A DNA stretch of 56,243 nucleotides, taken from positions 1 through 56,243 of IMG/VR virus record IMGVR_UViG_3300009184_000053; one strand, written 5' to 3'. The position numbers and the translations under genes were made by a program. The notes under the pieces were generated by a model. The model did not search any database and was not told the DNA's origin. It saw nothing but the letters and a program-made list of their open reading frames with translations. The DNA comes from a virus. Its lineage: Duplodnaviria > Caudoviricetes. Shown piece by piece: positions 2,863-41,664 of the stretch; within the stretch, counting starts at the first letter, position 1, and every line of letters begins with the position of its first letter.

Positions 2863-2913
2863 TAAAAATCCTAGCTTATTCAAATATATAGTAAAAAGTA
2901 TCATACCTTTTTG

Positions 2914-2921
2914 GATATATA
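2914..2921 (+). promoter_or_regulatory. putative late promoter GATATATA
   Basis: Recurrent motif, 23 nt upstream of the ATG at 2945. Confidence 0.6.
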
Positions 2922-2944
2922 ATCAGATAAAATAATTAAAAACT

Positions 2945-3709
2945 ATGGAATTTATAAACCAAGTTAAACAACTAAAGGAACAAACTAAATCACCTGAGGT
3001 TAGACAAATTTGCGAGGCATACCTAAGTGGTAAAGGTGGAATATCCCCTGAAGCTATAACTAATGTGTTAAATGAGAATTTTGTTACTCCTTTATCTAGC
3101 CCAAGTATATTAAACTACAGGGATGCAGTACAAAGGGAAGAAGCTGAAACCTCTAAAAGAGCAGCTGACTCATTAATGGCATCTTGGGATGGTGTAAAAT
3201 CAGCTCCTTTAAATAACTCAGGAACATACTTAATAAAAGAAAGTCAAAACAATGACAATTCTATAATTAGAGAAATAGCTAGTGCTGCTTCTGGAGATTC
3301 CTCTGCTAACTCTTTTGTCGAAGCTCAGGGATTAAAAAAATTAGGTGTTTTAGAATCTATCTCAAAGATAAAAAGCTCTTCGATTTATGAGCATCATCCA
3401 GTTAGAGTTTTATGTGAAAAATATTCAAATCTAATTGAAAATAAAAATATCCCAGAATTCGCTTTAATTCATAACTTTATAGCAGAAGCTTCTAATTTTA
3501 AATGGGATTTTACAGTAGGTGAAGTTTTAACTAAATTAAACAGAAGAGTTGATAAGTATTCTAGAGAAATAGAGGTTTCTAAAGTTTTAGAGAATGTTAA
3601 ATCAAGTGGAAGTTCTAGCTTTTATTCTGAATTAACTGAATCTTTAAATTCTTGGTTAATATCTGAAAGTAAATCTTCTTGTATATTATCTAAAAGTATT
3701 TCTAAATAG
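2945..3709 (+). CDS. N-terminal part of a large putative prohead core/internal protein (interrupted by TAG 3707-3709)
   Basis: In frame with 3734..5740; the intervening codons (AFNSVVRN) are open. Confidence 0.65.
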   Translation: MEFINQVKQLKEQTKSPEVRQICEAYLSGKGGISPEAITNVLNENFVTPLSSPSILNYRDAVQREEAETSKRAADSLMASWDGVKSAPLNNSGTYLIKESQNNDNSIIREIASAASGDSSANSFVEAQGLKKLGVLESISKIKSSSIYEHHPVRVLCEKYSNLIENKNIPEFALIHNFIAEASNFKWDFTVGEVLTKLNRRVDKYSREIEVSKVLENVKSSGSSSFYSELTESLNSWLISESKSSCILSKSISK

Positions 3710-3733
3710 GCTTTTAATTCAGTAGTTAGAAAC

Positions 3734-5740
3734 TTGATCAATTATCTTAATGTTAATGAATCAAGAAGTTCTAGAAATTTGGAAATACCTGTTTCACAAG
3801 GAGAATCTACTGTTAATAGAGTGCATTCACCAGTTTTAATAGAAGAAGGAAATACTATATTTGCTATAGGAAAAACACTTTTTGAAGCTTCAGAGAACGG
3901 GGTTAGTAAAATCGCTCAGGACAGAATACAATATATTTCTAATGACTATTTATCTCTTGTTTCTGCTTTAAATAACGAAGGCGTTAAAGTAAACGAAAAC
4001 GGTGTATTTGTAAGATTTGGTAAAAAGACTGTTAGATTGGTTGAAGAAAATTCTGATCTTTCTGTTTACTTAGATAAAACCAAATTAAATTTTAGAAGCT
4101 TAGGTGAACTTGGTAAACTTTTAGGTTTAGAGGCAGGTGCATACTTTGGTGTTAATGAGAATGAGACAATCACTAATGTTATTACCATATACAGAGGATT
4201 TAACGATATTGTTGAATTAGATTTTGCTAAATCTATAGTTTCTAATATCTACGAGGGTGTAACCGCAAATTTAATAAAATGGGAAGGTAAAATCTATCTA
4301 AACCGTGTTAATGAGGGTATGAGAGAAAATTCACTATTCCCGGTTAACGGAACACAAGCCGTTAATATGGTTAAAGAATTACTAAGATACGACATATCTG
4401 AAGGATTAACAGAATTCTTAGAGGGAGAACAAAAAGTTAAGTCTGTTATGATAAATGACAGAAATAAAGTTTTGGAAAATATCTCTAGAGTGGAGATTGA
4501 AATGTCTAAGATTGAAACCCTAATGGAAAGCAATCAACTTTATGCTAATTCTAAAGAAATCAAAGCTGCACATAATTTATTAAATAGAGAATTATCTCTA
4601 TTAAAAGAAAAGTGGAATCAAATAAACTTAGAGATAGCTAAAATAGAAATGACTCCAGAAATCGACGAGGTTTACATAACAGAAGATGAAAGATTTCATA
4701 TAGGTTCTTATATTAAAGTAAAAGAATCAGGAGAAAGCGGAAAAATAGTTTCTGTTGATGGAACATCTGGAAGATTTACAGTTCTTTTAGATAGCGGAAA
4801 AACGTCTGATTATTTGGTAAATGAAATAGTTGATTTAGACAGCGCATTAAATCAAGCTGCTAATGATAACGAGGAATCAAGATCAGATAGAAGCGATGAA
4901 GACGGAGAAGAGGAAATGAAAGAATCAATGACTCTTAATACCCTTAATAAATCTAAATTAAGCATCGGAGAGCAAAAGAAAATATTAAAGACTCTTGCTA
5001 CTAATCACTCATTTGCTAATGCCCCTAAAGGTGAACAAGACGAGATAGAGGTAGATATGGACGGATTTCATGGCTACAATTTAACAATGAATGAAGCCAT
5101 TAAGAAAATTCAATCCCAATATAAGAATGGCCAATTAGTTAAAGCTCCAGGTAATGATAAGATGACTAAAGGTAAGGACGCAAATAAGAAGAATTTAGCC
5201 GCTGCTCCAGGCAGTTCTAAAATGGTTAAAGGAAAGGAGCAAGGAAAAAATCTTTTAAGAGATGCTCCAGGTAAAGAAGGTGATGTAGATTTTGACGGTG
5301 TAGATGCTGCAGGAAATAAATATGAAATCGGGTACAATATAGCAGAGGGTAAAACGACAGCTACCAATTATGCTAAAACCCCAAACGGAGGTTCTAAAGT
5401 TAAATCTACTGGAGGAACTACGAAAAATAATACCACCGCTCACGCTCCAGAAAGTGGAAAACACGCTCCTCAAACTAAAGGAACAACTCCTAATAATTTA
5501 GCACATGCTCCAGAGAATGGAAAACATGCAGGAGAAACACATAAGCCTGCTTTAATGAATTCTTTAATTTCTGCTCCAGATCACGGAAGGAAAGCTAAAG
5601 AAACAAACAGCGTAGTTGCAGGAATTACTAAAAAACAAGGATTAGTATCTGCTCCAGGAAAGGAAGGAAATGTAAACTTTAAAGCAGCAAAAGATAGAGG
5701 TTACAATCTTTCGGAAGGGGAAGAATTAAAAAAAAAGTAA
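3734..5740 (+). CDS. C-terminal part of the same large protein: coiled coil, KOW/SH3-like segment, repetitive xxAPxxG tail
   Basis: Weak TTG start in frame with the upstream ORF; IGSYIKVKESGESGKIVSVD KOW-like segment; repeats LxxAPG and GYN(L/I)xE. Confidence 0.7.
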   Translation: MINYLNVNESRSSRNLEIPVSQGESTVNRVHSPVLIEEGNTIFAIGKTLFEASENGVSKIAQDRIQYISNDYLSLVSALNNEGVKVNENGVFVRFGKKTVRLVEENSDLSVYLDKTKLNFRSLGELGKLLGLEAGAYFGVNENETITNVITIYRGFNDIVELDFAKSIVSNIYEGVTANLIKWEGKIYLNRVNEGMRENSLFPVNGTQAVNMVKELLRYDISEGLTEFLEGEQKVKSVMINDRNKVLENISRVEIEMSKIETLMESNQLYANSKEIKAAHNLLNRELSLLKEKWNQINLEIAKIEMTPEIDEVYITEDERFHIGSYIKVKESGESGKIVSVDGTSGRFTVLLDSGKTSDYLVNEIVDLDSALNQAANDNEESRSDRSDEDGEEEMKESMTLNTLNKSKLSIGEQKKILKTLATNHSFANAPKGEQDEIEVDMDGFHGYNLTMNEAIKKIQSQYKNGQLVKAPGNDKMTKGKDANKKNLAAAPGSSKMVKGKEQGKNLLRDAPGKEGDVDFDGVDAAGNKYEIGYNIAEGKTTATNYAKTPNGGSKVKSTGGTTKNNTTAHAPESGKHAPQTKGTTPNNLAHAPENGKHAGETHKPALMNSLISAPDHGRKAKETNSVVAGITKKQGLVSAPGKEGNVNFKAAKDRGYNLSEGEELKKK

Positions 5741-5898
5741 CTAGGCACTTTTACTTTGCTCCTAAAGCTGAAGATCAGAATAAACCAGGGAAAAAATTCA
5801 TAGATCCATCTGCAGGAAAACTTAGTAAAGCACCAACAGGGAAGGACATCATACAAAATACAGACGATGATTCTTCGGAGCCTGAAGAATCTAAATAA
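5737..5898 (+). other. -1 frame extension (53 aa) reached through the slippery A_AAA_AAG site at 5731-5737
   Basis: Open frame VTRHFYFAPKAEDQNKPGKKFIDPSAGKLSKAPTGK...EESK* continues the AP repeat and ends just before a terminator. Confidence 0.6.
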
Positions 5899-5905
5899 AT
5901 ATTAG

Positions 5906-5933
5906 AAAGAGAATGCATCGCATTCTCTTTTTT
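5906..5933 (+). terminator. rho-independent terminator
   Basis: AAAGAGAATGC-ATC-GCATTCTCTTT plus a T run. Confidence 0.8.
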
Positions 5934-5936
5934 ATT

Positions 5937-5964
5937 GAAATATTATCATATTTATTAACTAGAA
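5937..5964 (+). promoter_or_regulatory. putative ECF-sigma-like promoter GAAAT-N16-ACTAGAA
   Basis: Variant of the GGAAC-N16-wCTA motif, upstream of the late sigma gene. Confidence 0.5.
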
Positions 5965-5998
5965 TATAATAGTTCTAATCCAAATAAACTCACACTTA

Positions 5999-6358
5999 AT
6001 GGCCAAAGATTATGTAAAAAATAGCGATCTAATGATAGCTGTTGTAGAATCAAAGAAAAACGGAAAGCTAACCCCTGAAACAATAGCTATGTTTACCCTA
6101 ATGATACAAGGGATATCTAAAAAAATGGCCTATAAAGATCCTGATGATAAGGACGATTGCATGGCATTTGCGATGGAAGATCTTTGCAAATATTGGGATA
6201 GGTTCAACCCAGAGAAATCGAATAATCCTTTTGCATATTTTACTCAGATAGCGAAGAATGGGTTTGCTAAAGGCTGGAAAAAACTCCATCCGCCTAAGAG
6301 TCCTAAAACTATACCCTTTAGCTATATCACAGGTGATGATAACACATATAACATTTAA
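5999..6358 (+). CDS. gp55: T4 gp55-like sigma factor for late transcription (short form)
   Basis: YVKNxDL...KYWDRFNPEKSNNPFAYFTQIAKNGF is the typical gp55 region-2 signature. Confidence 0.85.
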   Translation: MAKDYVKNSDLMIAVVESKKNGKLTPETIAMFTLMIQGISKKMAYKDPDDKDDCMAFAMEDLCKYWDRFNPEKSNNPFAYFTQIAKNGFAKGWKKLHPPKSPKTIPFSYITGDDNTYNI

Positions 6359-6363
6359 TTTAT

Positions 6364-6849
6364 ATGACTGATATTAAAAAGGTTAAGCCCAATGGTGAAT
6401 ATAAGTCTGGATTATATGCTCCTATTAATCAAGATAAGTATATTGGGGATATTCATAATATAATATACCGATCCTCGTGGGAATATAGATTTTGTACATA
6501 TTGTGATACTAATGAATCAATAATTAAATGGTCATCAGAGCCCATGGCTATAGATTATTATAATCCTTTAGATAAAAAAGAGCATAAATATAATGTTGAT
6601 TTTTATATAAAAGTTATAAGAGAGGATAACGAGATCCAAGAATGGATTATAGAGATTAAGCCAGAGAGACAAACGCAAAAGCCAATATATGAGGGTAATA
6701 TGACTCTTTCTAAATTAAAGTCATATAATAGAAATATGCAGATCTGGATAACAAATCAAGCTAAGTTTAAAGCAGCCAAAGACTGGGCTGAGAAAAGAGG
6801 ATTTAAGTTTGGTGTTGTTGATGAGAATTTTTTATTTAAAAGTAGATGA
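6364..6849 (+). CDS. gp4: head completion nuclease (T4 gp4-like, TnsA-type fold)
   Basis: KYIGD..NIIYRSSWE...WSSEP...YNVDFYIK...IEIKP..QT. Confidence 0.9.
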   Translation: MTDIKKVKPNGEYKSGLYAPINQDKYIGDIHNIIYRSSWEYRFCTYCDTNESIIKWSSEPMAIDYYNPLDKKEHKYNVDFYIKVIREDNEIQEWIIEIKPERQTQKPIYEGNMTLSKLKSYNRNMQIWITNQAKFKAAKDWAEKRGFKFGVVDENFLFKSR

Positions 6850-7487: not shown

Positions 7488-9128
7488 ATGGCTGGTTTCG
7501 TAGATAATAATGGTCCTTCTCAATCCCCGGTTATACAAAGAATTAGGGATTCTCTTAAAAGGTTAAGTACCTTTGGGATGAAGTATGATGATATGGTTAT
7601 TAGGAATTCCCAAGCGGTAGGAGCTACAGAGGCTTCTTTTCTTAATAAAAATAAATCAAATGTCGAAGATGAAGGTATGTTATGGACCTTGGCTAAGCAA
7701 GATATAACAACCAAACAATTTGTATCATATTTCGATAAAGACTATAAGGGCAAAAGAGATTACCTCAGAAAATTTTCTTTAAACCCTGAGATTGAATGGG
7801 TCCTTGATATACTTTGCGATGAATCCATATCATATAATCCTTCCAACTATTTTGCCTATCCTGATATGATAGATCTTACCGATCTTAACGAAAAGCTTAA
7901 GGATGATCTGTATGAAACATATAAAAAGATATACGATGTATGGGGATTCAACGATGATATAACAGCTTGGCAATATTTTAGACAATTTTTAGTTGATGGG
8001 TTTTTAGCATTTGAAATAATATACGATAATTCAGGCAAAGAAATAATAGGATTTAAAGAGATAGATGCAGTAACAATAGTTCCTAGTGTAGAAAAGCAAC
8101 CAAATGGTTCTTTTTTAAGTACATGGACACAATTCCCTCAGGATCCTAGAAAAAGAAGAGTTCTTTACGATCCACAGATCATTTATATTTCTTATGCTAA
8201 AGGAAATTCTATATCAAGAATTAGTTACACAGAAAGACTGATTCGCCCTTATAATATTCTTAGAATTATAGAATACACCAGGGTAATTTGGTCTGTTATG
8301 AATGCTTCGTTTAAGCTAAAGATGACCGTTCCAATTGGAACAAAATCTCAGCAGAAAGGTATGCAAACATTGGGTGAATTAATGAGTATTTATAAAGAAG
8401 ACATCCAGTTAAATGATGATACAGGAGAGCTACTTGTTGATGGCAGACCTAAAATACAATTCTATAAGAATTATTTAATGCCACAAGGGGTAAACGGAAC
8501 TCCTACCATAGAGCCAATAACTACTGAAGGACCTAATTTAAACGACACGACACCTTTGAATTACTTTTATGATAAGTTTTCTCAGGAATCTAAAATCCCA
8601 GCATCTAGATTCCATGGTCCGGATGGAGGTAATACCTCAACTTATGTAAATGCTGCAGAAGGATTAGATAAGGAGGAAATTAGATTTTCTAAGTTTATAT
8701 CTAGATTAAGATCGACATTTCAAGAGATATTAACTAAGCCTTTATGGATTCAAATGGCAAAGAAACACCCTCAGCTAGAGCAGGATTTTACATTCAAAAG
8801 TCAACTAGGCCTTGAATATTTTTCGGATAATCCTTTTAAGATAAATCAGGAGATAGAAATGTTTAATAAAAGAAAGGAGTCGGTTACAGCTATGGCTGGA
8901 CTCCTTGAAGATGGAGAAAAGCCTTATTTTTCTGTTTCATTCTTGGTTGAAAACTTTTTAGGAATGTCACATCAGGATATAAAATCTAACCAGGAGGCGG
9001 TCGAAAGAAGGAAGAAAGAGAAAGAGGAAGAGGCTAAAAAGAAAAAGAAAGAAGAAGAGAAAAAAGCTAAAAAAGAAGGTGAGGAAGGTGGAGAAGAAGC
9101 AGGGGATGATGAAACGGCAACATTATAA
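7488..9128 (+). CDS. gp20: portal vertex protein, copy 1 (T4 gp20-like)
   Basis: NPEIE..LD...DESI, FRQFLVDG, SY.ERLIRPYN.LRIIE, IPASRF, EEIRFSKFISRLRS.F. Confidence 0.9.
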   Translation: MAGFVDNNGPSQSPVIQRIRDSLKRLSTFGMKYDDMVIRNSQAVGATEASFLNKNKSNVEDEGMLWTLAKQDITTKQFVSYFDKDYKGKRDYLRKFSLNPEIEWVLDILCDESISYNPSNYFAYPDMIDLTDLNEKLKDDLYETYKKIYDVWGFNDDITAWQYFRQFLVDGFLAFEIIYDNSGKEIIGFKEIDAVTIVPSVEKQPNGSFLSTWTQFPQDPRKRRVLYDPQIIYISYAKGNSISRISYTERLIRPYNILRIIEYTRVIWSVMNASFKLKMTVPIGTKSQQKGMQTLGELMSIYKEDIQLNDDTGELLVDGRPKIQFYKNYLMPQGVNGTPTIEPITTEGPNLNDTTPLNYFYDKFSQESKIPASRFHGPDGGNTSTYVNAAEGLDKEEIRFSKFISRLRSTFQEILTKPLWIQMAKKHPQLEQDFTFKSQLGLEYFSDNPFKINQEIEMFNKRKESVTAMAGLLEDGEKPYFSVSFLVENFLGMSHQDIKSNQEAVERRKKEKEEEAKKKKKEEEKKAKKEGEEGGEEAGDDETATL

Positions 9129-9137
9129 AAATAAAAA

Positions 9138-10757
9138 ATGGCAGGATTTACAGACGGGCTTAAACCCAATCAATCAGCTTTAGGTAATATAATAAGAAAT
9201 CTTGGAAGAATTTCTAAGCTTGGCATGGAGTATGATGACATGGTTGTAAGAAACTCTCAAGCAGTTGGTAAAACTGAATCTGCATTCTTTAATCAATCAA
9301 GTACAGGATTTACCGAAAATGATGCTTTTTATTGGACATTATCATATCAGGATACAAGGGTTAGGAAATACATAGCTTATTTTGATAAAGATTATATTGA
9401 GAAAAGAAATTTCTTAAGAAAGTTTTCTTTAAATGGCGAGATTGAATTTATATTAGATACTGTAACTGACGAGTGTATAAGTTATGATGACCGTAATTTC
9501 TTTGCAACACCATCTTTTGTAAATCTTCAGGATCTAAAAGATAAAACGAGAGAAGAGATCACTCATAATTATAATAGACTTTATAATGTTTTCGGATTTC
9601 AAAATACAATATTAGCTTGGCAATTTTTTAAACAATTTCTAGTTGATGGATTTTTAGCATTTGAAATAATATATGATAATGCAGGTAAGGAAATAATAGG
9701 ATTTAAGGAGCTTGATCCAACATCACTTCAACCTGCAGTTGAGAAGATTGGGGAGAATGAATATAAACAATTTTGGATTCAATATCCGAAGAATCCTCAA
9801 ATGACAAGAAAACTAACTAATGAGCAGATAATTTACATTTCCTATGCTAAAGGAAATTCTATATCAAGAGTTAGCTATTTAGAAAGACTTGTAAGATCAT
9901 ATAACATTTTAAGAATAATGGAAAATTCTAGGGTTATCTGGAATGTTATGAACGCTTCATTCAGACTTAAATTTATAATTCCAACTGGAACACAGTCTCC
10001 TCAGAAAGCAATGCAAACCCTGGGACAGTTAATGAGTAACTACAAGGAGGAGATATCTATAAATGATTCATCAGGTGAAATGACTGTTAACGGTAAACCA
10101 AAAATACAGTTCTATAAGAATTATCTTTTCCCTGAACAAAATGGCCAATCTCCAACAATTGAGTCTCTTAATGCATCAGGACCTGATTTTAATGTAATGG
10201 AAAATGTTCTCTATTTCTTTAACAAACTTAAAATGGATTCTAAGATTCCCTATGCTAGATTTGCTTCAAGAGGAGCAACACCAGTTAACTATTCAGTGAG
10301 CATAGATTCTTTAGAGAGAGATGAAATTAGATTTGAAAAATTCTTAACCAGATTAAGATCAATTTTCCAAGAGATCCTAGTAAAACCCCTTTACATACAA
10401 ATGTGTTTAAAACATCCAGAGCTTGCTAAAGACAGAAGTTTTAAAACTAATTTAGGTATAAATTTCCACAGGGAAAGTCCATTCAATGAGCAAGTTCAAA
10501 TTGCTTCCTATCAGAAAAGAACAGAGTTTATCACAGGTCTAGGAGAGCTTAAAACTAAAATGGGAGAAACAGAAGTTCCCTATTTTGATGCTGGATTTTT
10601 AATTCAAAGATTCTTAGGTCTTAACCCAGATCTAATTTCTCTTAATGAGAAATACAAAAAGAAAGATGATAAAGAAGCAGAAAAAGTTGCTAAGGCAGCT
10701 GCTGATGCGGAAGGAGCTGAAGGCGAAGCAGGGGCAGAAGATACAGCTACCCTATAA
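9138..10757 (+). CDS. gp20: portal vertex protein, copy 2 (T4 gp20-like)
   Basis: Full-length paralog of 7488..9128 with the same motifs (FKQFLVDG, IPYARF, RDEIRFEKFLTRLRS). Confidence 0.9.
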   Translation: MAGFTDGLKPNQSALGNIIRNLGRISKLGMEYDDMVVRNSQAVGKTESAFFNQSSTGFTENDAFYWTLSYQDTRVRKYIAYFDKDYIEKRNFLRKFSLNGEIEFILDTVTDECISYDDRNFFATPSFVNLQDLKDKTREEITHNYNRLYNVFGFQNTILAWQFFKQFLVDGFLAFEIIYDNAGKEIIGFKELDPTSLQPAVEKIGENEYKQFWIQYPKNPQMTRKLTNEQIIYISYAKGNSISRVSYLERLVRSYNILRIMENSRVIWNVMNASFRLKFIIPTGTQSPQKAMQTLGQLMSNYKEEISINDSSGEMTVNGKPKIQFYKNYLFPEQNGQSPTIESLNASGPDFNVMENVLYFFNKLKMDSKIPYARFASRGATPVNYSVSIDSLERDEIRFEKFLTRLRSIFQEILVKPLYIQMCLKHPELAKDRSFKTNLGINFHRESPFNEQVQIASYQKRTEFITGLGELKTKMGETEVPYFDAGFLIQRFLGLNPDLISLNEKYKKKDDKEAEKVAKAAADAEGAEGEAGAEDTATL

Positions 10758-23474: not shown

Positions 23475-23500
23475 AAAACAAAAAAAAATAAACACAAATC

Positions 23501-25390: not shown

Positions 25391-26533
25391 ATGAAAAATA
25401 TCCCCTCTTTTAACGAGTTTAAAAAATACGATCATCTTTTAGAATCTTCTGATGATTTATTAAGGAAAGAATTTAATGAATTAGAGAGATTAGAAATTTC
25501 TTATAACCTAAACGAGGGAAGTGCTTTAGATTCTATAAAAAGTTCTTTATCTAAATTCTTTTTGGGTCCTTTGTCTAAAACTGGTATGATAGACGAGACA
25601 AGAAAGATTATGATTGATCTAGAGATTGACCTAATAGAACAGAAGTACTCTATCGAGAAAGAAATAGAAAATATTAACGACCAAATAAGTGGTTTATCAA
25701 GATCATCAGAGAAAGAGAAATATACAGCTTTAGTTAAGGATAAGGAATCTAAAATTAAGCAGATTGAAACCTATATTAAATCGCAAAGATTAAAGATAAA
25801 AAAGTGTCAGGAACACATAAGAAATCTTATAGGTAAAAGTGAAAGAAGAAGAGAATATTACGAAACTGGCAGAGCGGAGGATGAAATAACAATAGCAGAA
25901 TTTGAATATCAATTAGCTAAATCAGAAGCAGATTCTTCTGAAATTAGAAAATATGAAGAAAAAATAGCTGCTGCTAGAAAAGAAGCTGCCGAGAAAGCTG
26001 AGAAATTTGAGGATGATTTAAAAGCAAGCTCTGAGATAGAATCTGAAGAGCCTGTCGAGCGAGTGGATGCGGAGAAGGAGAAGAAGAAAGTTTCTTCTAG
26101 AAAAGGATCTGATATTATAAAAAGAAAAAATGATTTGCAGAAAGAGATCATAGATTTGAAATCAGATCTTGAAAGGAAGCTTAAGACCCTACAAAAAAGA
26201 ATAGAAAAAGGAAACGGTAAAGCATCAGTTTCATACGTTAATAAGATGAGAATTCAACTTCTTGAATTAACATCTACACTTGATGCCAAAGTTAATCTTT
26301 TAAATGCTTTTAAGGAATTAGGGGGAAGCGAGAAAGAAATAACTTCTAAGGTTGCTAAAGAGACTGAGTTTTCTAAATTAGCAAGTAAGATTAATAGCGG
26401 AATAGTAGATGGCCAGGATGCTAATACAGGAACTAAAAAAATAATAGGATCTATTTTTTCAACGAATTCTAAAAATGGAACTGGTGAGGTAAAGATTGAA
26501 AAATTAAAAGATGCTATTAAGAAAATTCAATAG
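25391..26533 (+). CDS. coiled-coil putative internal head protein, paralog of 26561..27496
   Basis: N-terminus MKNIPSFNEF, LNE/G site; shares IG..R..YY/W....A....I.E..Y..AK...DSS with the next ORF. Confidence 0.7.
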   Translation: MKNIPSFNEFKKYDHLLESSDDLLRKEFNELERLEISYNLNEGSALDSIKSSLSKFFLGPLSKTGMIDETRKIMIDLEIDLIEQKYSIEKEIENINDQISGLSRSSEKEKYTALVKDKESKIKQIETYIKSQRLKIKKCQEHIRNLIGKSERRREYYETGRAEDEITIAEFEYQLAKSEADSSEIRKYEEKIAAARKEAAEKAEKFEDDLKASSEIESEEPVERVDAEKEKKKVSSRKGSDIIKRKNDLQKEIIDLKSDLERKLKTLQKRIEKGNGKASVSYVNKMRIQLLELTSTLDAKVNLLNAFKELGGSEKEITSKVAKETEFSKLASKINSGIVDGQDANTGTKKIIGSIFSTNSKNGTGEVKIEKLKDAIKKIQ

Positions 26534-26560: not shown

Positions 26561-27496
26561 ATGACCTTATTAAAATTTAAAGAGTGGAATAGAGTAGATG
26601 AATCAAAGATTAGCGATAAGCTTAAGAATTGGTTTAGTGGAGCTTTCGGCGGGGCTATACATAAGCTTGATTCACTTCTATCAGAATATAAAACTTCAGA
26701 GCTAAGATTTGTTGACGAGTGGGATGAGGTTAAAACTGAGATTGATTCTTTATCTTTGGAAAGATCCCAAAAAAGAAGCGATCCTGCTGATGCTAAAAGA
26801 ATTGACAGAATGATTGATAGAAATCAAGCAATAATTCCGGCAGCAACTAAAGCTAAAGAGAAGAAGAGTGAGGAAGTTATGTTGAAAGCTAAAAATATTA
26901 TAGGAGATAATAAAAGACTTCAGAGCTATTGGGATACTAAAAAAGCTACGGTTGATTCTGAGATATCTGAAGAGATGTATAGAAGGGCTAAAAGATTAAC
27001 AGATTCAAGTTTAGCCGATGATCTTTATAGTAAGTATAAAAAAGCAGTAACTAAGGCAAAAGAAAAAGATGAAGCTTTTAAAGAGGAATATGGGGATTAT
27101 TCTTTTGGTAGAGTCCCTTCATATACTCCTGAAAGATCTTATGGATCTTATTTTGATATAGCTAAAAGATCAACTCCGGTTGATTCTGTCGGAGGTATGG
27201 AATCTAGTTTTGAGTTTCTTTCTAAATTATCAGTAGTCGAATTTGCAGAAGCAATTAAGGGATTCCCTAGGGATCAAGCTAAAAAACTTGCAATTTTTCT
27301 AATAAATGAAAGGAATGATAGATATGTTTCAATGGATATGGAAAGAGACCTTTTAAATACAGAGGTTGAAAAAAATCCAAATGATCATAAAACTAGAGAG
27401 TATGCCTCTAAAAAAATAAAAGAGATCAGAGAAAAATATATGGCTGAGATCAGAGATCTAAGATCCAAAATAACAATAATAAAAAGATATGCTTAA
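26561..27496 (+). CDS. coiled-coil putative internal head protein, paralog of 25391..26533
   Basis: N-terminus MTLLKFKEW..VDE/S, followed by an amphipathic helix. Confidence 0.7.
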   Translation: MTLLKFKEWNRVDESKISDKLKNWFSGAFGGAIHKLDSLLSEYKTSELRFVDEWDEVKTEIDSLSLERSQKRSDPADAKRIDRMIDRNQAIIPAATKAKEKKSEEVMLKAKNIIGDNKRLQSYWDTKKATVDSEISEEMYRRAKRLTDSSLADDLYSKYKKAVTKAKEKDEAFKEEYGDYSFGRVPSYTPERSYGSYFDIAKRSTPVDSVGGMESSFEFLSKLSVVEFAEAIKGFPRDQAKKLAIFLINERNDRYVSMDMERDLLNTEVEKNPNDHKTREYASKKIKEIREKYMAEIRDLRSKITIIKRYA

Positions 27497-41349: not shown

Positions 41350-41664
41350 GTGAATATTTACATATCCAAGAGTTCCTCAAAAGAGGCCAAAAAAAAATTA
41401 CACTTAAACGAGTGTGATTTTTACATAGTTGACATTTCTAAGATAATCAGAGATCTAGGATATGAAACAGATAAATTAACCACTGAATCGGAGTTTATAT
41501 TAAACTACACTATTCGCAAGAAAATTATTCATGGAATATATACTACAAAGTGCGATAGTATGCTAGTTTGCTATAGAAACTCTACCCCTGAATTTGTTGA
41601 TAATTTGGAAGATTTCTTTACCGAATTAACCGAAAACGTTGAGTATACTATCCATCACTTGTAA
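41350..41664 (+). CDS. hypothetical protein
   Basis: 104-aa ORF with a GTG start. Confidence 0.6.
   Translation: MNIYISKSSSKEAKKKLHLNECDFYIVDISKIIRDLGYETDKLTTESEFILNYTIRKKIIHGIYTTKCDSMLVCYRNSTPEFVDNLEDFFTELTENVEYTIHHL

Follow-up and report, generated by a model that had tools for sequence, protein, structure and literature searches.

The locus and its gene

We analysed one strand of a 56,243-nt stretch of viral DNA (hereafter the window), which comprises positions 1 to 56,243 of the IMG/VR record IMGVR_UViG_3300009184_000053. The gene studied here has about 930 codons and is carried by a giant phage from freshwater, whose lineage consists of uncultured giant T4-like phages. On inspection of the sequence, its 0 frame ends in TTA AAA AAA AAG TAA, and a second, -1 frame remains open beyond this stop. 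The features of the locus are as follows:

2945–3706, + strand: first 254 codons (N-terminal part) of the large gene; in all relatives they run on into the body without a break
3707–3709, + strand: in-frame TAG; relatives have TGG (8) or TAT/TAC (5)
3710–5737, + strand: gene body in the 0 frame (a 668-aa ORF is listed from TTG 3734)
5713–5720, + strand: GGAAGGGG, SD-like block 10 nt upstream of the heptamer, not conserved in relatives
5728–5736, + strand: A9 run, the candidate slip site, invariant in 32/32 distinct main-type junctions; A9 or A10 in 60/60 loci
5731–5737, + strand: heptamer A_AAA_AAG, in phase with the 0 frame; candidate site for a -1 shift by the ribosome
5737–5898, + strand: -1 frame extension, 53 codons plus TAA (5896–5898), first codon GTA, without a start codon of its own
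5738–5740, + strand: 0-frame TAA, which abuts the A9 run and closes the predicted short isoform
5905–5933, + strand: hairpin plus T tract, intrinsic terminator-like, 3' of the extension stop

An earlier, sequence-only reading of this DNA had described the A9 run, the stop behind it, the open -1 frame with further copies of the protein's repeat, and a terminator placed after the second stop, and all of these are there as claimed. The junction of the A9 run with the -1 extension is confirmed as a real observation: an independent DNA run yielded a 973-nt contig spanning 5416–6388, with 0 other letters and 0 gaps relative to the window. This contig confirms the A9 against the suspicion that the true run has ten A's, and the frame break is not an assembly error. 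Contigs from RNA runs, sought on 2900–6500, cover parts of 3304–5545, and none of them spans 5562–6166, where the A run lies, or 3626–3746, where the TAG lies.

Besides beta-rich domains, the body of the protein has a long helical hairpin, an SH3-like domain and an acidic linker, together with a tail rich in AP-x-G/K repeats that is probably disordered. When deposited phage genomes were searched with the DNA of the gene, no match was returned; at the protein level there was one weak partial match, in an uncultured huge phage, with 30% identity across 19% of the query. PHROGs holds no family for either part of the gene. In Pfam nothing scored above cut-off for the window protein (SH3-like MSSS reached 17 bits, below the 26.8 cut-off), and the L039-type relative was the only one with PG_binding_1. 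No credible match came from a profile-based search of PDB sequences (best E-value 0.024), and matches in the ESM Atlas were limited to the protein's own cluster of hypothetical viral proteins. For an AlphaFold model of the central 390 residues (pLDDT 74.8), Foldseek found no convincing fold in the PDB, where full-length hits had TM-scores of 0.2 or less; against viral models it found only uncharacterized myovirus proteins, including one of Tenacibaculum phage PTm1.

The gene is adjoined by a gene for a gp55-like late sigma factor (5999–6358), implying that it is probably the core RNA polymerase of the host that transcribes it. The nearest relatives of the capsid protein are found in phages of Bacteroidota and of Sphingomonas, and the hosts of the lineage are probably Bacteroidota. 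SD-like 4-mers lie upstream of 4 of the 51 genes of the window, against a background of 20%.

The in-frame TAG at 3707 had led to the suggestion that one gene carries two recoding events. All 13 relatives compared have Trp or Tyr at that position, so a second recoding event is not supported, and the comparison points to a premature stop in this gene copy, or to an error. Nor did we find support for a reassignment of TAG as in Lak-type phages: there is one in-frame TAG only, the one at 3707, and TAG is still used as a stop. No tRNA gene was found within the window, which makes up about 20% of the genome, so that one may lie elsewhere. A second case of read-through, at the ORF pair 25391–26533 and 26561–27496, which is split by an in-frame TAG, was ruled out because relatives have two genes there in different frames; the TAG at 26531–26533 truly ends a gene, its counterpart in relatives being a TAA with a change of frame.

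Conservation of the A run

For comparison we used the window and 59 viral contigs, 60 loci that carry 52 dataset numbers by hand count. At the junction, for which there are 37 distinct sequences, the run is A9 in 58 loci and A10 in the other two, and the -1 shift organisation is present in 52 of the 60, so that the frame break and the extension recur in orthologues. The presence of such a run is not in itself telling, as a lone A9 is not unusual given the composition of the window; at the same time, A9/T9 runs are depleted there (3 observed, against 13.4 ± 5.0 expected from 100 dinucleotide-preserving shuffles of the window), and the chance of a 53-codon open frame after a stop in DNA of 33% G+C is about 1%, a rough figure from base frequencies. 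What decides the matter is conservation, with an A9 or A10 at the same junction in 60/60 loci.

Most informative are the main-type loci, in which the 0-frame stop lies directly 3' of the run, an arrangement retained in all 32 distinct junctions of this type. All nine A's are invariant across these 32 junctions, including those at three 0-frame third-codon positions, while the third positions immediately 5' of the run have entropies of 1.3–1.85 bits, neighbouring synonymous sites are saturated and the residue preceding the run alternates between Leu and Val. Codon bias fails to explain this invariance, since the Lys codons of the window number 1095 AAA and 433 AAG. The base 3' of the run is C in 26 and G in 6 of the 32 junctions; the length of the run is kept, then, whichever codon stands in the A site.

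One tight clade (100/100 support) contains four other arrangements, namely an in-frame fusion, a shift with a later stop, an A10 and a separate small ORF, and the run is kept in all of them. Fusion of the extension peptide in frame to the body is seen in 5 loci; in this form the -1 frame stops after 3 codons, and therefore the same two products would be available with the default reversed. In L060, L062 and L064 the homologous peptide is a separate small ORF whose own ATG lies about 55 nt upstream of the run. Wherever the arrangement requires a shift, the heptamer is in phase for tandem tRNA slippage, and in two of the non-main arrangements it reads A_AAA_AAA.

Runs of A9 or A10 are also seen at the other end of the gene, where they follow a TATATAAT-like element just 5' of the start codon in 29 of the 59 relatives.

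The -1 frame extension

Pairwise differences between the extensions, counted by codon position 1, 2 and 3 of the -1 frame, number 480, 344 and 931; this substitution pattern shows, within the sequences compared, that the extension evolves as a protein in the -1 frame under purifying selection. Eighteen of its columns are invariant in an alignment of 8 sequences, and its conservation exceeds that of the repeat region preceding it. The peptide consists of a conserved aromatic/basic core with two AP motifs, followed by an acidic tail, and would add two copies of the AP-x-G/K motif to the approximately ten in the C-terminal third of the 0-frame protein. Upstream, the -1 frame is closed within 4–5 codons in 23 of 33 distinct sequences; downstream, a terminator-like hairpin lies 3' of the extension stop in 33 of 34 distinct main-type relatives. 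Conservation of the site and selection on the -1 frame together support the earlier proposal that the gene would give rise to two C-terminal isoforms by recoding.

Stimulatory elements

The E. coli dnaX -1 frameshift site combines A_AAA_AAG with an upstream SD and a downstream stem-loop, and the phage site had at first been labelled dnaX-type. The two are alike in the A_AAA_AAG heptamer, which is present in 0-frame phase in the window, and in having two C-terminal isoforms per gene (predicted ones, in the case of the phage). Unlike E. coli dnaX, however, the phage site has no conserved SD or structure, its shifted product would be the longer one, and most relatives have AAC in place of AAG. 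No conserved structure was found downstream: the consensus fold of 9 sequences has an energy of -1.48 kcal/mol with almost no covariation, and the window's own downstream 103 nt fold with a z of 0.18 relative to shuffles. The GGAAGGGG stretch, proposed earlier as an SD stimulator, is not conserved in the 9-sequence alignment, in a genome where SD-like 4-mers precede so few genes, and the block is probably irrelevant to the site. With the SD-like block confined to the window, no conserved structure downstream, and A_AAA_AAC in 26 of the 32 distinct main-type junctions against only 6 with the G form, the dnaX-type label is not supported. A slip at this site would probably need no help from an SD or an RNA structure.

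Proposed mechanism of the slip

We favour, with moderate confidence, the reading that the A9 at 5728–5736 is a conserved programmed recoding site at which the host RNA polymerase is the most likely agent of the slip, perhaps with some addition from ribosomal slippage. Transcriptional slippage, which had been mentioned in the sequence-only reading as an option, has thus become the leading mechanism. Standard decoding would stop at the TAA right after the run and give the short isoform, while a one-base slip on the run would put part of the product in the -1 frame, where the conserved tail of 53 residues is appended and the long isoform results. The slip would come about when the multi-subunit polymerase of the host adds one extra A to some transcripts, the homopolymer having the length of the RNA–DNA hybrid, and ribosomal -1 slippage on A_AAA_AAG may contribute. 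The tail could be a conserved module for binding or anchoring, with a dose that depends on how often the slip takes place. We infer that the slip occurs, at which level it does so, in what ratio the isoforms are made and what the tail does.

Efficient slippage of bacterial RNA polymerase in vivo on 9 A or T is described in a part of PMC5009743. In the section of PMC1088944 that deals with the recognition of functional slippage, the criterion is a conserved ORF organisation together with a conserved 9-A pattern; at the phage junction, both the run and the overlapping-ORF organisation are conserved in non-identical homologues.

Some observations count against polymerase slippage. No bacterial -1 shift motif is better known than A_AAA_AAG, the heptamer of the window. 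Shifting by the ribosome can be stimulated by a stop next to the site, whereas polymerase slippage has no need of one, and the 0-frame stop is retained in 32/32 main-type junctions with the heptamer in the required phase. In E. coli reporters, as portions of PMC6260861 report them, the host polymerase slips little on A runs, not detectably on fewer than 8 A, and prefers T runs, which also weighs against polymerase slippage here.

The main rival is that the ribosome shifts to the -1 frame on A_AAA_AAG (in relatives, on A_AAA_AAC or A_AAA_AAA), without SD or hairpin and perhaps aided by the stop, and that this is the main source of the long isoform. We consider this a serious possibility, although clearly a less probable one than the polymerase. 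The heptamer is correctly phased in the window as in every other arrangement that requires a shift, and the stop never leaves its 3' side in the main type. What this explanation does not account for is that the three A's 5' of the heptamer vary no more than the heptamer does across the 32 distinct main-type junctions, although E-site re-pairing could be an alternative cause of selection on them. It is also at odds with the variation of the A-site codon (AAC in 26, AAG in 6, AAA in others), as AAG is the shifty one in bacteria and AAC is a poor A-site shift codon in E. coli, and with a genome that does not use SD sites and conserves neither SD nor downstream structure at this one. Precedents do exist: in the relevant part of PMC4066793, A_AAA_AAC of IS1 is a proven frameshift site without an established stimulator, and passages of PMC5009743 mention bacteria that frameshift to the long dnaX product with a 0-frame stop directly after the site, as well as tailed-phage shifts that work at low efficiency without stimulators.

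Far less probable is phase variation at the level of DNA, in which A9 and A10 would interconvert during replication and subpopulations of phage would encode either the short or the long form. Homopolymers are prone to indels, and several frame arrangements occur at short distances within one clade, but all 48 main-type loci have exactly A9, with no A10 in that context, and the independent DNA run also has A9 with no inserted or omitted letters, though contigs drop rare variants. We give almost no credence to an artefact or decay, that is, an assembly error in the homopolymer, or else a pseudogene-like state in which a frameshift mutation has recently truncated the true C-terminus: the premature TAG may mark this gene copy as partly degraded, but the same frame break recurs in 52 of 60 loci, in many datasets and at 48–85% protein identity, with an invariant run, a downstream frame under purifying selection and the A9 in the independent contig. 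Equally hard to credit is translation of the extension alone, by independent initiation or by termination-reinitiation, as a separate small protein; the small ORFs of L060, L062 and L064 would fit this, but no ATG, GTG or TTG precedes the conserved motif in any of the 33 distinct main-type -1 ORFs (0/33), and 5 loci have the peptide fused in frame to the body.

Discussion

Minor isoforms with a C-terminal extension, which arise through a -1 shift close to where the gene ends, are familiar from the T7 capsid protein (10A/10B) and the lambda tail chaperone (G/GT). These shifts take place on ribosomal heptamers and not on hybrid-length homopolymers, and the proteins are unrelated to that of the phage gene described here.

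Slippage by the polymerase, our preferred reading, has a parallel in Thermus thermophilus dnaX (tau/gamma), where transcriptional slippage occurs on a 9-base run. As far as the dnaX account in PMC5009743 goes, the likeness consists of a hybrid-length homopolymer within the gene, extra A's in some of the mRNA, two products sharing an N-terminus, and stops close by in the short-form frames. In Thermus, however, the long form is the standard one and the slip leads to the short form, whereas in the main type of the phage the short form is standard and the slip would lead to the long one; moreover, the two genes are not homologous, and the polymerase would be that of the phage's host. In tssM1 of Citrobacter rodentium and tssM3 of Yersinia pseudotuberculosis there is likewise a poly-A right before a stop, where added A's fuse a C-terminal part, and both length variants and their ratio are needed, according to portions of PMC4256274. 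The tssM runs have 11 A and rescue an interrupted gene in a few strains, whereas the phage A9 is kept across a deep family; the added part in the phage would be a 53-residue peptide and not a folded domain.

A-rich sites without a known stimulator are also found in IS1 insA-insB' (A_AAA_AAC) and in the 9-A fusions of IS orfA-orfB, the latter with an ORF overlap conserved along with the 9-A pattern, to go by parts of PMC4066793 and PMC1088944. Those are transposase genes of mobile elements, while here the site lies in a phage gene and the extension is short. Among the papers listed in literature searches on phage transcriptional slippage and jumbo phage frameshifting, none dealt with this site or gene family, although the supplementary tables of PMC4066793 and PMC1088944 could list related clusters. 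What we describe would be a known recoding trick in a protein family apparently without previous description.

A broader reading, which we offer as speculative and rather unlikely, is that in this SD-poor giant-phage lineage hybrid-length A runs are a general, frame-agnostic isoform switch on which the RNA polymerase of the host acts with high efficiency (tens of percent), that the tail is a self-contained binding module, and that the A9/A10 before the start codon is a second use of slippage. Such a switch would explain how one small clade could move among out-of-frame, in-frame, A10 and split forms with the run always kept, because either default would still yield both products. The dose of the 53-residue tail per virion or per cell would then be set by the slip rate, and the A9/A10 after the TATATAAT-like element would reflect reiterative initiation.

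The junction adds a deeply conserved and clean example of what appears to be programmed recoding at a poly-A run in DNA phages. Gene callers truncate this family, so giant-phage annotation omits the predicted long isoform and with it the most conserved C-terminal module. Where relatives have C 3' of the run, polymerase slippage and ribosomal slippage could be told apart at the level of the protein. Because it probably needs neither SD nor RNA-structure stimulators, the site also bears on how recoding may work in hosts without SD pairing.

The junction at the end of the 0-frame ORF

Re-reading of the window confirmed the earlier description of the 3' end of the large gene, including the junction, the -1 ORF, the additional motif copies and the position of the hairpin. 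The 0-frame ORF ends TCG GAA GGG GAA GAA TTA AAA AAA AAG TAA, with the following elements around it (the first four read from the sequence, the fifth by translation).

5713-5720, + strand: GGAAGGGG, an SD-like block
5728-5736, + strand: run of nine A's (A9)
5731-5737, + strand: heptamer A_AAA_AAG
5738-5740, + strand: 0-frame stop TAA
From 5737, + strand: -1 frame of 53 codons (the extension, or tail), closed by TAA at 5896-5898
5905-5933, + strand: hairpin with a T tract, 3' of the extension

About ten AP-x-G/K motifs lie in the C-terminal third of the 0-frame protein, and two more are found in the -1 peptide. The length of the A run was checked against X2, an independent DNA sequencing run whose sample code differs from that of the possible source of the window. 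A 973-nt X2 contig covers 5416-6388 with no other letters, no gaps and no inserted or omitted letters listed, supporting nine A's rather than ten and excluding an assembly artefact.

Conservation of the junction in relatives

A first scan, with the 668-aa part as query, returned 16 viral loci, 12 of which span the 3' end of the gene. Each of the 12 has a homologous extension in the -1 frame relative to the body, with a junction of the form [T/G]T-A9-[G/C]-TAA, followed by a -1 frame of 52-54 codons; orthologues thus keep both the shift and the extension. Two of the other four loci stop at a contig edge; in the remaining two, L015 and L016, the gene is shorter, with neither repeat region nor extension, and its end is marked by a terminator. 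A second scan, with a profile of the extension, found 59 viral contigs (52 different dataset numbers, counted from the table). Together with the window these make 60 loci, every one of which has A9 (58) or A10 (2) at the junction, in five arrangements.

Arrangements of the junction in the window and 59 related contigs
Type I, 48 loci: A9 followed by G or C and next by TAA or TAG; extension in the -1 frame
Type II, 5 loci: in-frame fusion through A9-CCCC; -1 frame open for only three codons
Type III, 2 loci: -1 shift needed; 0-frame stop 12 codons further on
Type IV, 2 loci: A10-GCT-TAA; -1 shift needed
Type V, 3 loci: end of the body some 70 nt upstream; peptide in a separate small ORF that has an ATG and contains A9 in frame

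The 129-nt junction comes in 37 distinct sequences. Type I accounts for 32 of these, in which the base after the run is C (26) or G (6) and the 0-frame stop is TAA (31) or TAG (1). A maximum-likelihood tree was built from the conserved 390 residues (55 sequences, giving 38 distinct rows; loci with matches of less than 330 residues, six in all, were left out). Types II-V group in a single tight clade with 100/100 support, which lies among type I clades, and for this reason type I is probably the ancestral arrangement, as read from a midpoint-rooted tree in which the extension-less L016 sits on a long branch.

Coding character of the extension and its dependence on the body

Pairwise differences among nine distinct extension sequences number 480, 344 and 931 at the first, second and third codon positions of the -1 frame, and the remaining two frames contain 2-4 and 4-9 stops. 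Eighteen columns are invariant among eight sequences. The first 35-40 residues of the extension are 55-81% identical to the window, and the repeat region just 5' of it is about 24-31% identical or unalignable in more distant relatives. Among 33 distinct -1 ORFs of type I, no ATG, GTG or TTG precedes the conserved aromatic motif. Going upstream from the junction, the -1 frame meets a stop after 4-5 codons in 23 of the 33 and after at most 15, which confines the shift to the run or a position beside it. In 33 of 34 distinct sequences of type I, the stop of the extension is followed within 90 nt by a hairpin with a T tract. On this comparative evidence, the extension is coding and dependent on the body.

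Selection on the A run

The nine A's and the preceding T are invariant across the 32 type I junction sequences. Of these A's, three occupy third-codon positions and three fall beyond the heptamer; T and G alternate as first base of the codon ahead of the run, giving Leu or Val. The 0-frame third-codon positions of the ten upstream codons have entropies of 0.86-1.85 bits (1.3-1.85 in eight of the ten). Codon bias was ruled out as the cause of the invariant run, because Lys codons in the window are AAA 1095 times and AAG 433 times. DNA-level phase variation of run length is argued against by the absence of A10 from all 48 type I loci.

In the window as a whole A9/T9 runs are depleted, with three found against 13.4 +/- 5.0 expected from 100 dinucleotide-preserving shuffles, which is consistent with selection against slippage-prone runs. 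Two of the three are within ORFs; the only other in-ORF A9, at 41389-41397, is in frame, 13 codons from the GTG start of a 104-aa ORF (41350-41664). The third, at 23480-23488, is intergenic, in the short gap that separates the prohead protease gene from the major capsid protein gene, and is 12 nt 5' of the capsid ATG. Two relatives have an in-frame A9 within the body (L069:2984-2992 and L073:3213-3221) that is not conserved, the window having mixed AAA/AAG codons there. Separately, 29 of the 59 loci (range L021-L076; for example L021:1293-1301) carry an A9/A10 run 7-8 nt 5' of the large gene's ATG, after a TATATAAT-like element; no such run lies upstream of 2945 in the window. This arrangement may be a late promoter with its start site within the run, perhaps with reiterative initiation.

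Polymerase slippage and ribosomal shifting

Two routes would lead to the same extension: RNA polymerase could add one A to the mRNA, so that translation enters the extension, or tRNAs could slip by -1 on A_AAA_AAN into the same frame. We lean towards polymerase slippage as the main source of the long form, since selection covers the whole nine-base length and extends past the heptamer, different A-site codons occur (AAC, AAG or AAA), the run is kept even in arrangements that need no shift, and ribosomal stimulators are absent. In E. coli, AAC has poor shiftiness. Published cases point the same way. The Atkins et al. review describes high-efficiency in vivo slippage by bacterial RNA polymerase on nine A's or T's, and about 50% of each product from the nine-base run of Thermus dnaX (PMC5009743); for Baranov et al., functional slippage is indicated by conserved ORF organisation together with a conserved nine-A pattern (PMC1088944); and in C. 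rodentium tssM1 a poly-A tract lies just 5' of the stop and both forms are needed (PMC4256274).

Ribosomal -1 shifting as the main source is a possible but less probable reading. The window heptamer is the classic bacterial one, its phase is preserved in every type that requires a shift, and the adjoining stop is invariant in type I. A stop adjoining the slip site can stimulate ribosomal shifting. IS1 A_AAA_AAC functions without a known stimulator (PMC4066793), and one reporter study found weak slippage of E. coli polymerase on runs of A and none detectable below eight A's (PMC6260861). Both kinds of slip may contribute. Contigs from three RNA libraries cover only parts of 3304-5545.

The site had been called dnaX-type. 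It does share the heptamer A_AAA_AAG with E. coli dnaX, but two of the three defining features of that signal fail: relatives have no conserved SD-like block upstream of the run and no conserved downstream structure (consensus fold over 100 nt past the run, -1.48 kcal/mol, negligible covariation). The window's own downstream fold is no better than shuffles (z = 0.18). SD-like 4-mers at -20 to -5 were found in 4 of 51 window genes versus 20% of random positions, and in so SD-poor a genome the SD-like block is unlikely to matter. Besides the run and, for type I, the adjoining stop, no cis element is conserved.

The amber codon

3707-3709, + strand: in-frame TAG splitting the large gene

The sequence-only reading raised the possibility that this codon is a second recoding event, which the comparison does not support. 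In 13 relatives the same codon is TGG (8) or TAT/TAC (5), all reading straight into the body, and no tRNA gene was found in the window. Just one other TAG, at 26531, is followed by a long open stretch in frame; it is a real gene end, because relatives end the gene there with TAA and carry the following gene in a different frame. On the evidence of the window, TAG is thus a stop in this phage. The window copy therefore probably has either a premature stop or a base error at 3707-3709. X2 contigs break with loose ends at 3572-3750, around the TAG. The two proposed isoforms, of about 931 and 985 residues, stand for intact relatives such as L002 but are not demonstrable for the window copy.

Genome setting

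The window is a linear 56-kb viral contig with an estimated completeness of 20% and all genes on the + strand; its + strand ORFs of at least 100 aa end in TAA (43), TAG (5) or TGA (2). Related contigs reach 434 kb, and the runs with matching DNA are freshwater metagenomes. T4-like neighbours include a DNA ligase, a clamp loader, a head-closure protein, a prohead protease, the major capsid protein, two tandem portal paralogues and a late sigma factor.

5999-6358, + strand: gp55-type late sigma factor

The portal paralogues stand side by side (7488-9128 and 9138-10757), an unusual arrangement, and both match nearly the full phrog_213 profile (E-values 4e-57 and 4e-63). The capsid protein is nearest to that of an uncultured huge phage (44% identity), with 38-41% identity to Lak phages of Prevotella; other close relatives are from phages of Tenacibaculum, Chryseobacterium, Flavobacterium and Sphingomonas. 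SD-independent translation is a trait of Bacteroidota. Gene start regions in the window are A-rich as well as SD-poor, features that point to initiation without SD pairing and to a Bacteroidota-like host.

The protein family and its tail

The large gene's protein had no match among Pfam and PHROG families. In one clade of relatives (the L039 clade; orthologue at L039:1002-3644) a PG_binding_1 (peptidoglycan-binding) domain (E-value 3.9e-13) is inserted after the first ~110 residues, and the protein bearing it is 53% identical to that of L002 over 617 residues. In L068 (1127-3504) the body is broken near 2503-2554 by a deletion with a frame change, at a place other than an A run. The model of the central 390 residues (pLDDT 74.8) predicts beta-rich domains, a long helical hairpin and a small SH3-like barrel, and resembles only uncharacterized myovirus proteins; for these residues, neither profile search nor model comparison found anything convincing in the PDB.

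The five type II in-frame fusions show body and tail as one ordinary predicted protein. The core of the tail is aromatic/basic and its end acidic, and the tail's occurrence as a separate ORF in type V suggests a self-contained binding module. T7 10A/10B and lambda G/GT are cases for comparison. Literature searches on slippage in phages and on jumbo-phage frameshifts listed no paper on this site. Thermus dnaX, the IS-element fusions at A9 runs and tssM1 represent the same kind of working device; it is a known device, here within an undescribed phage protein family.
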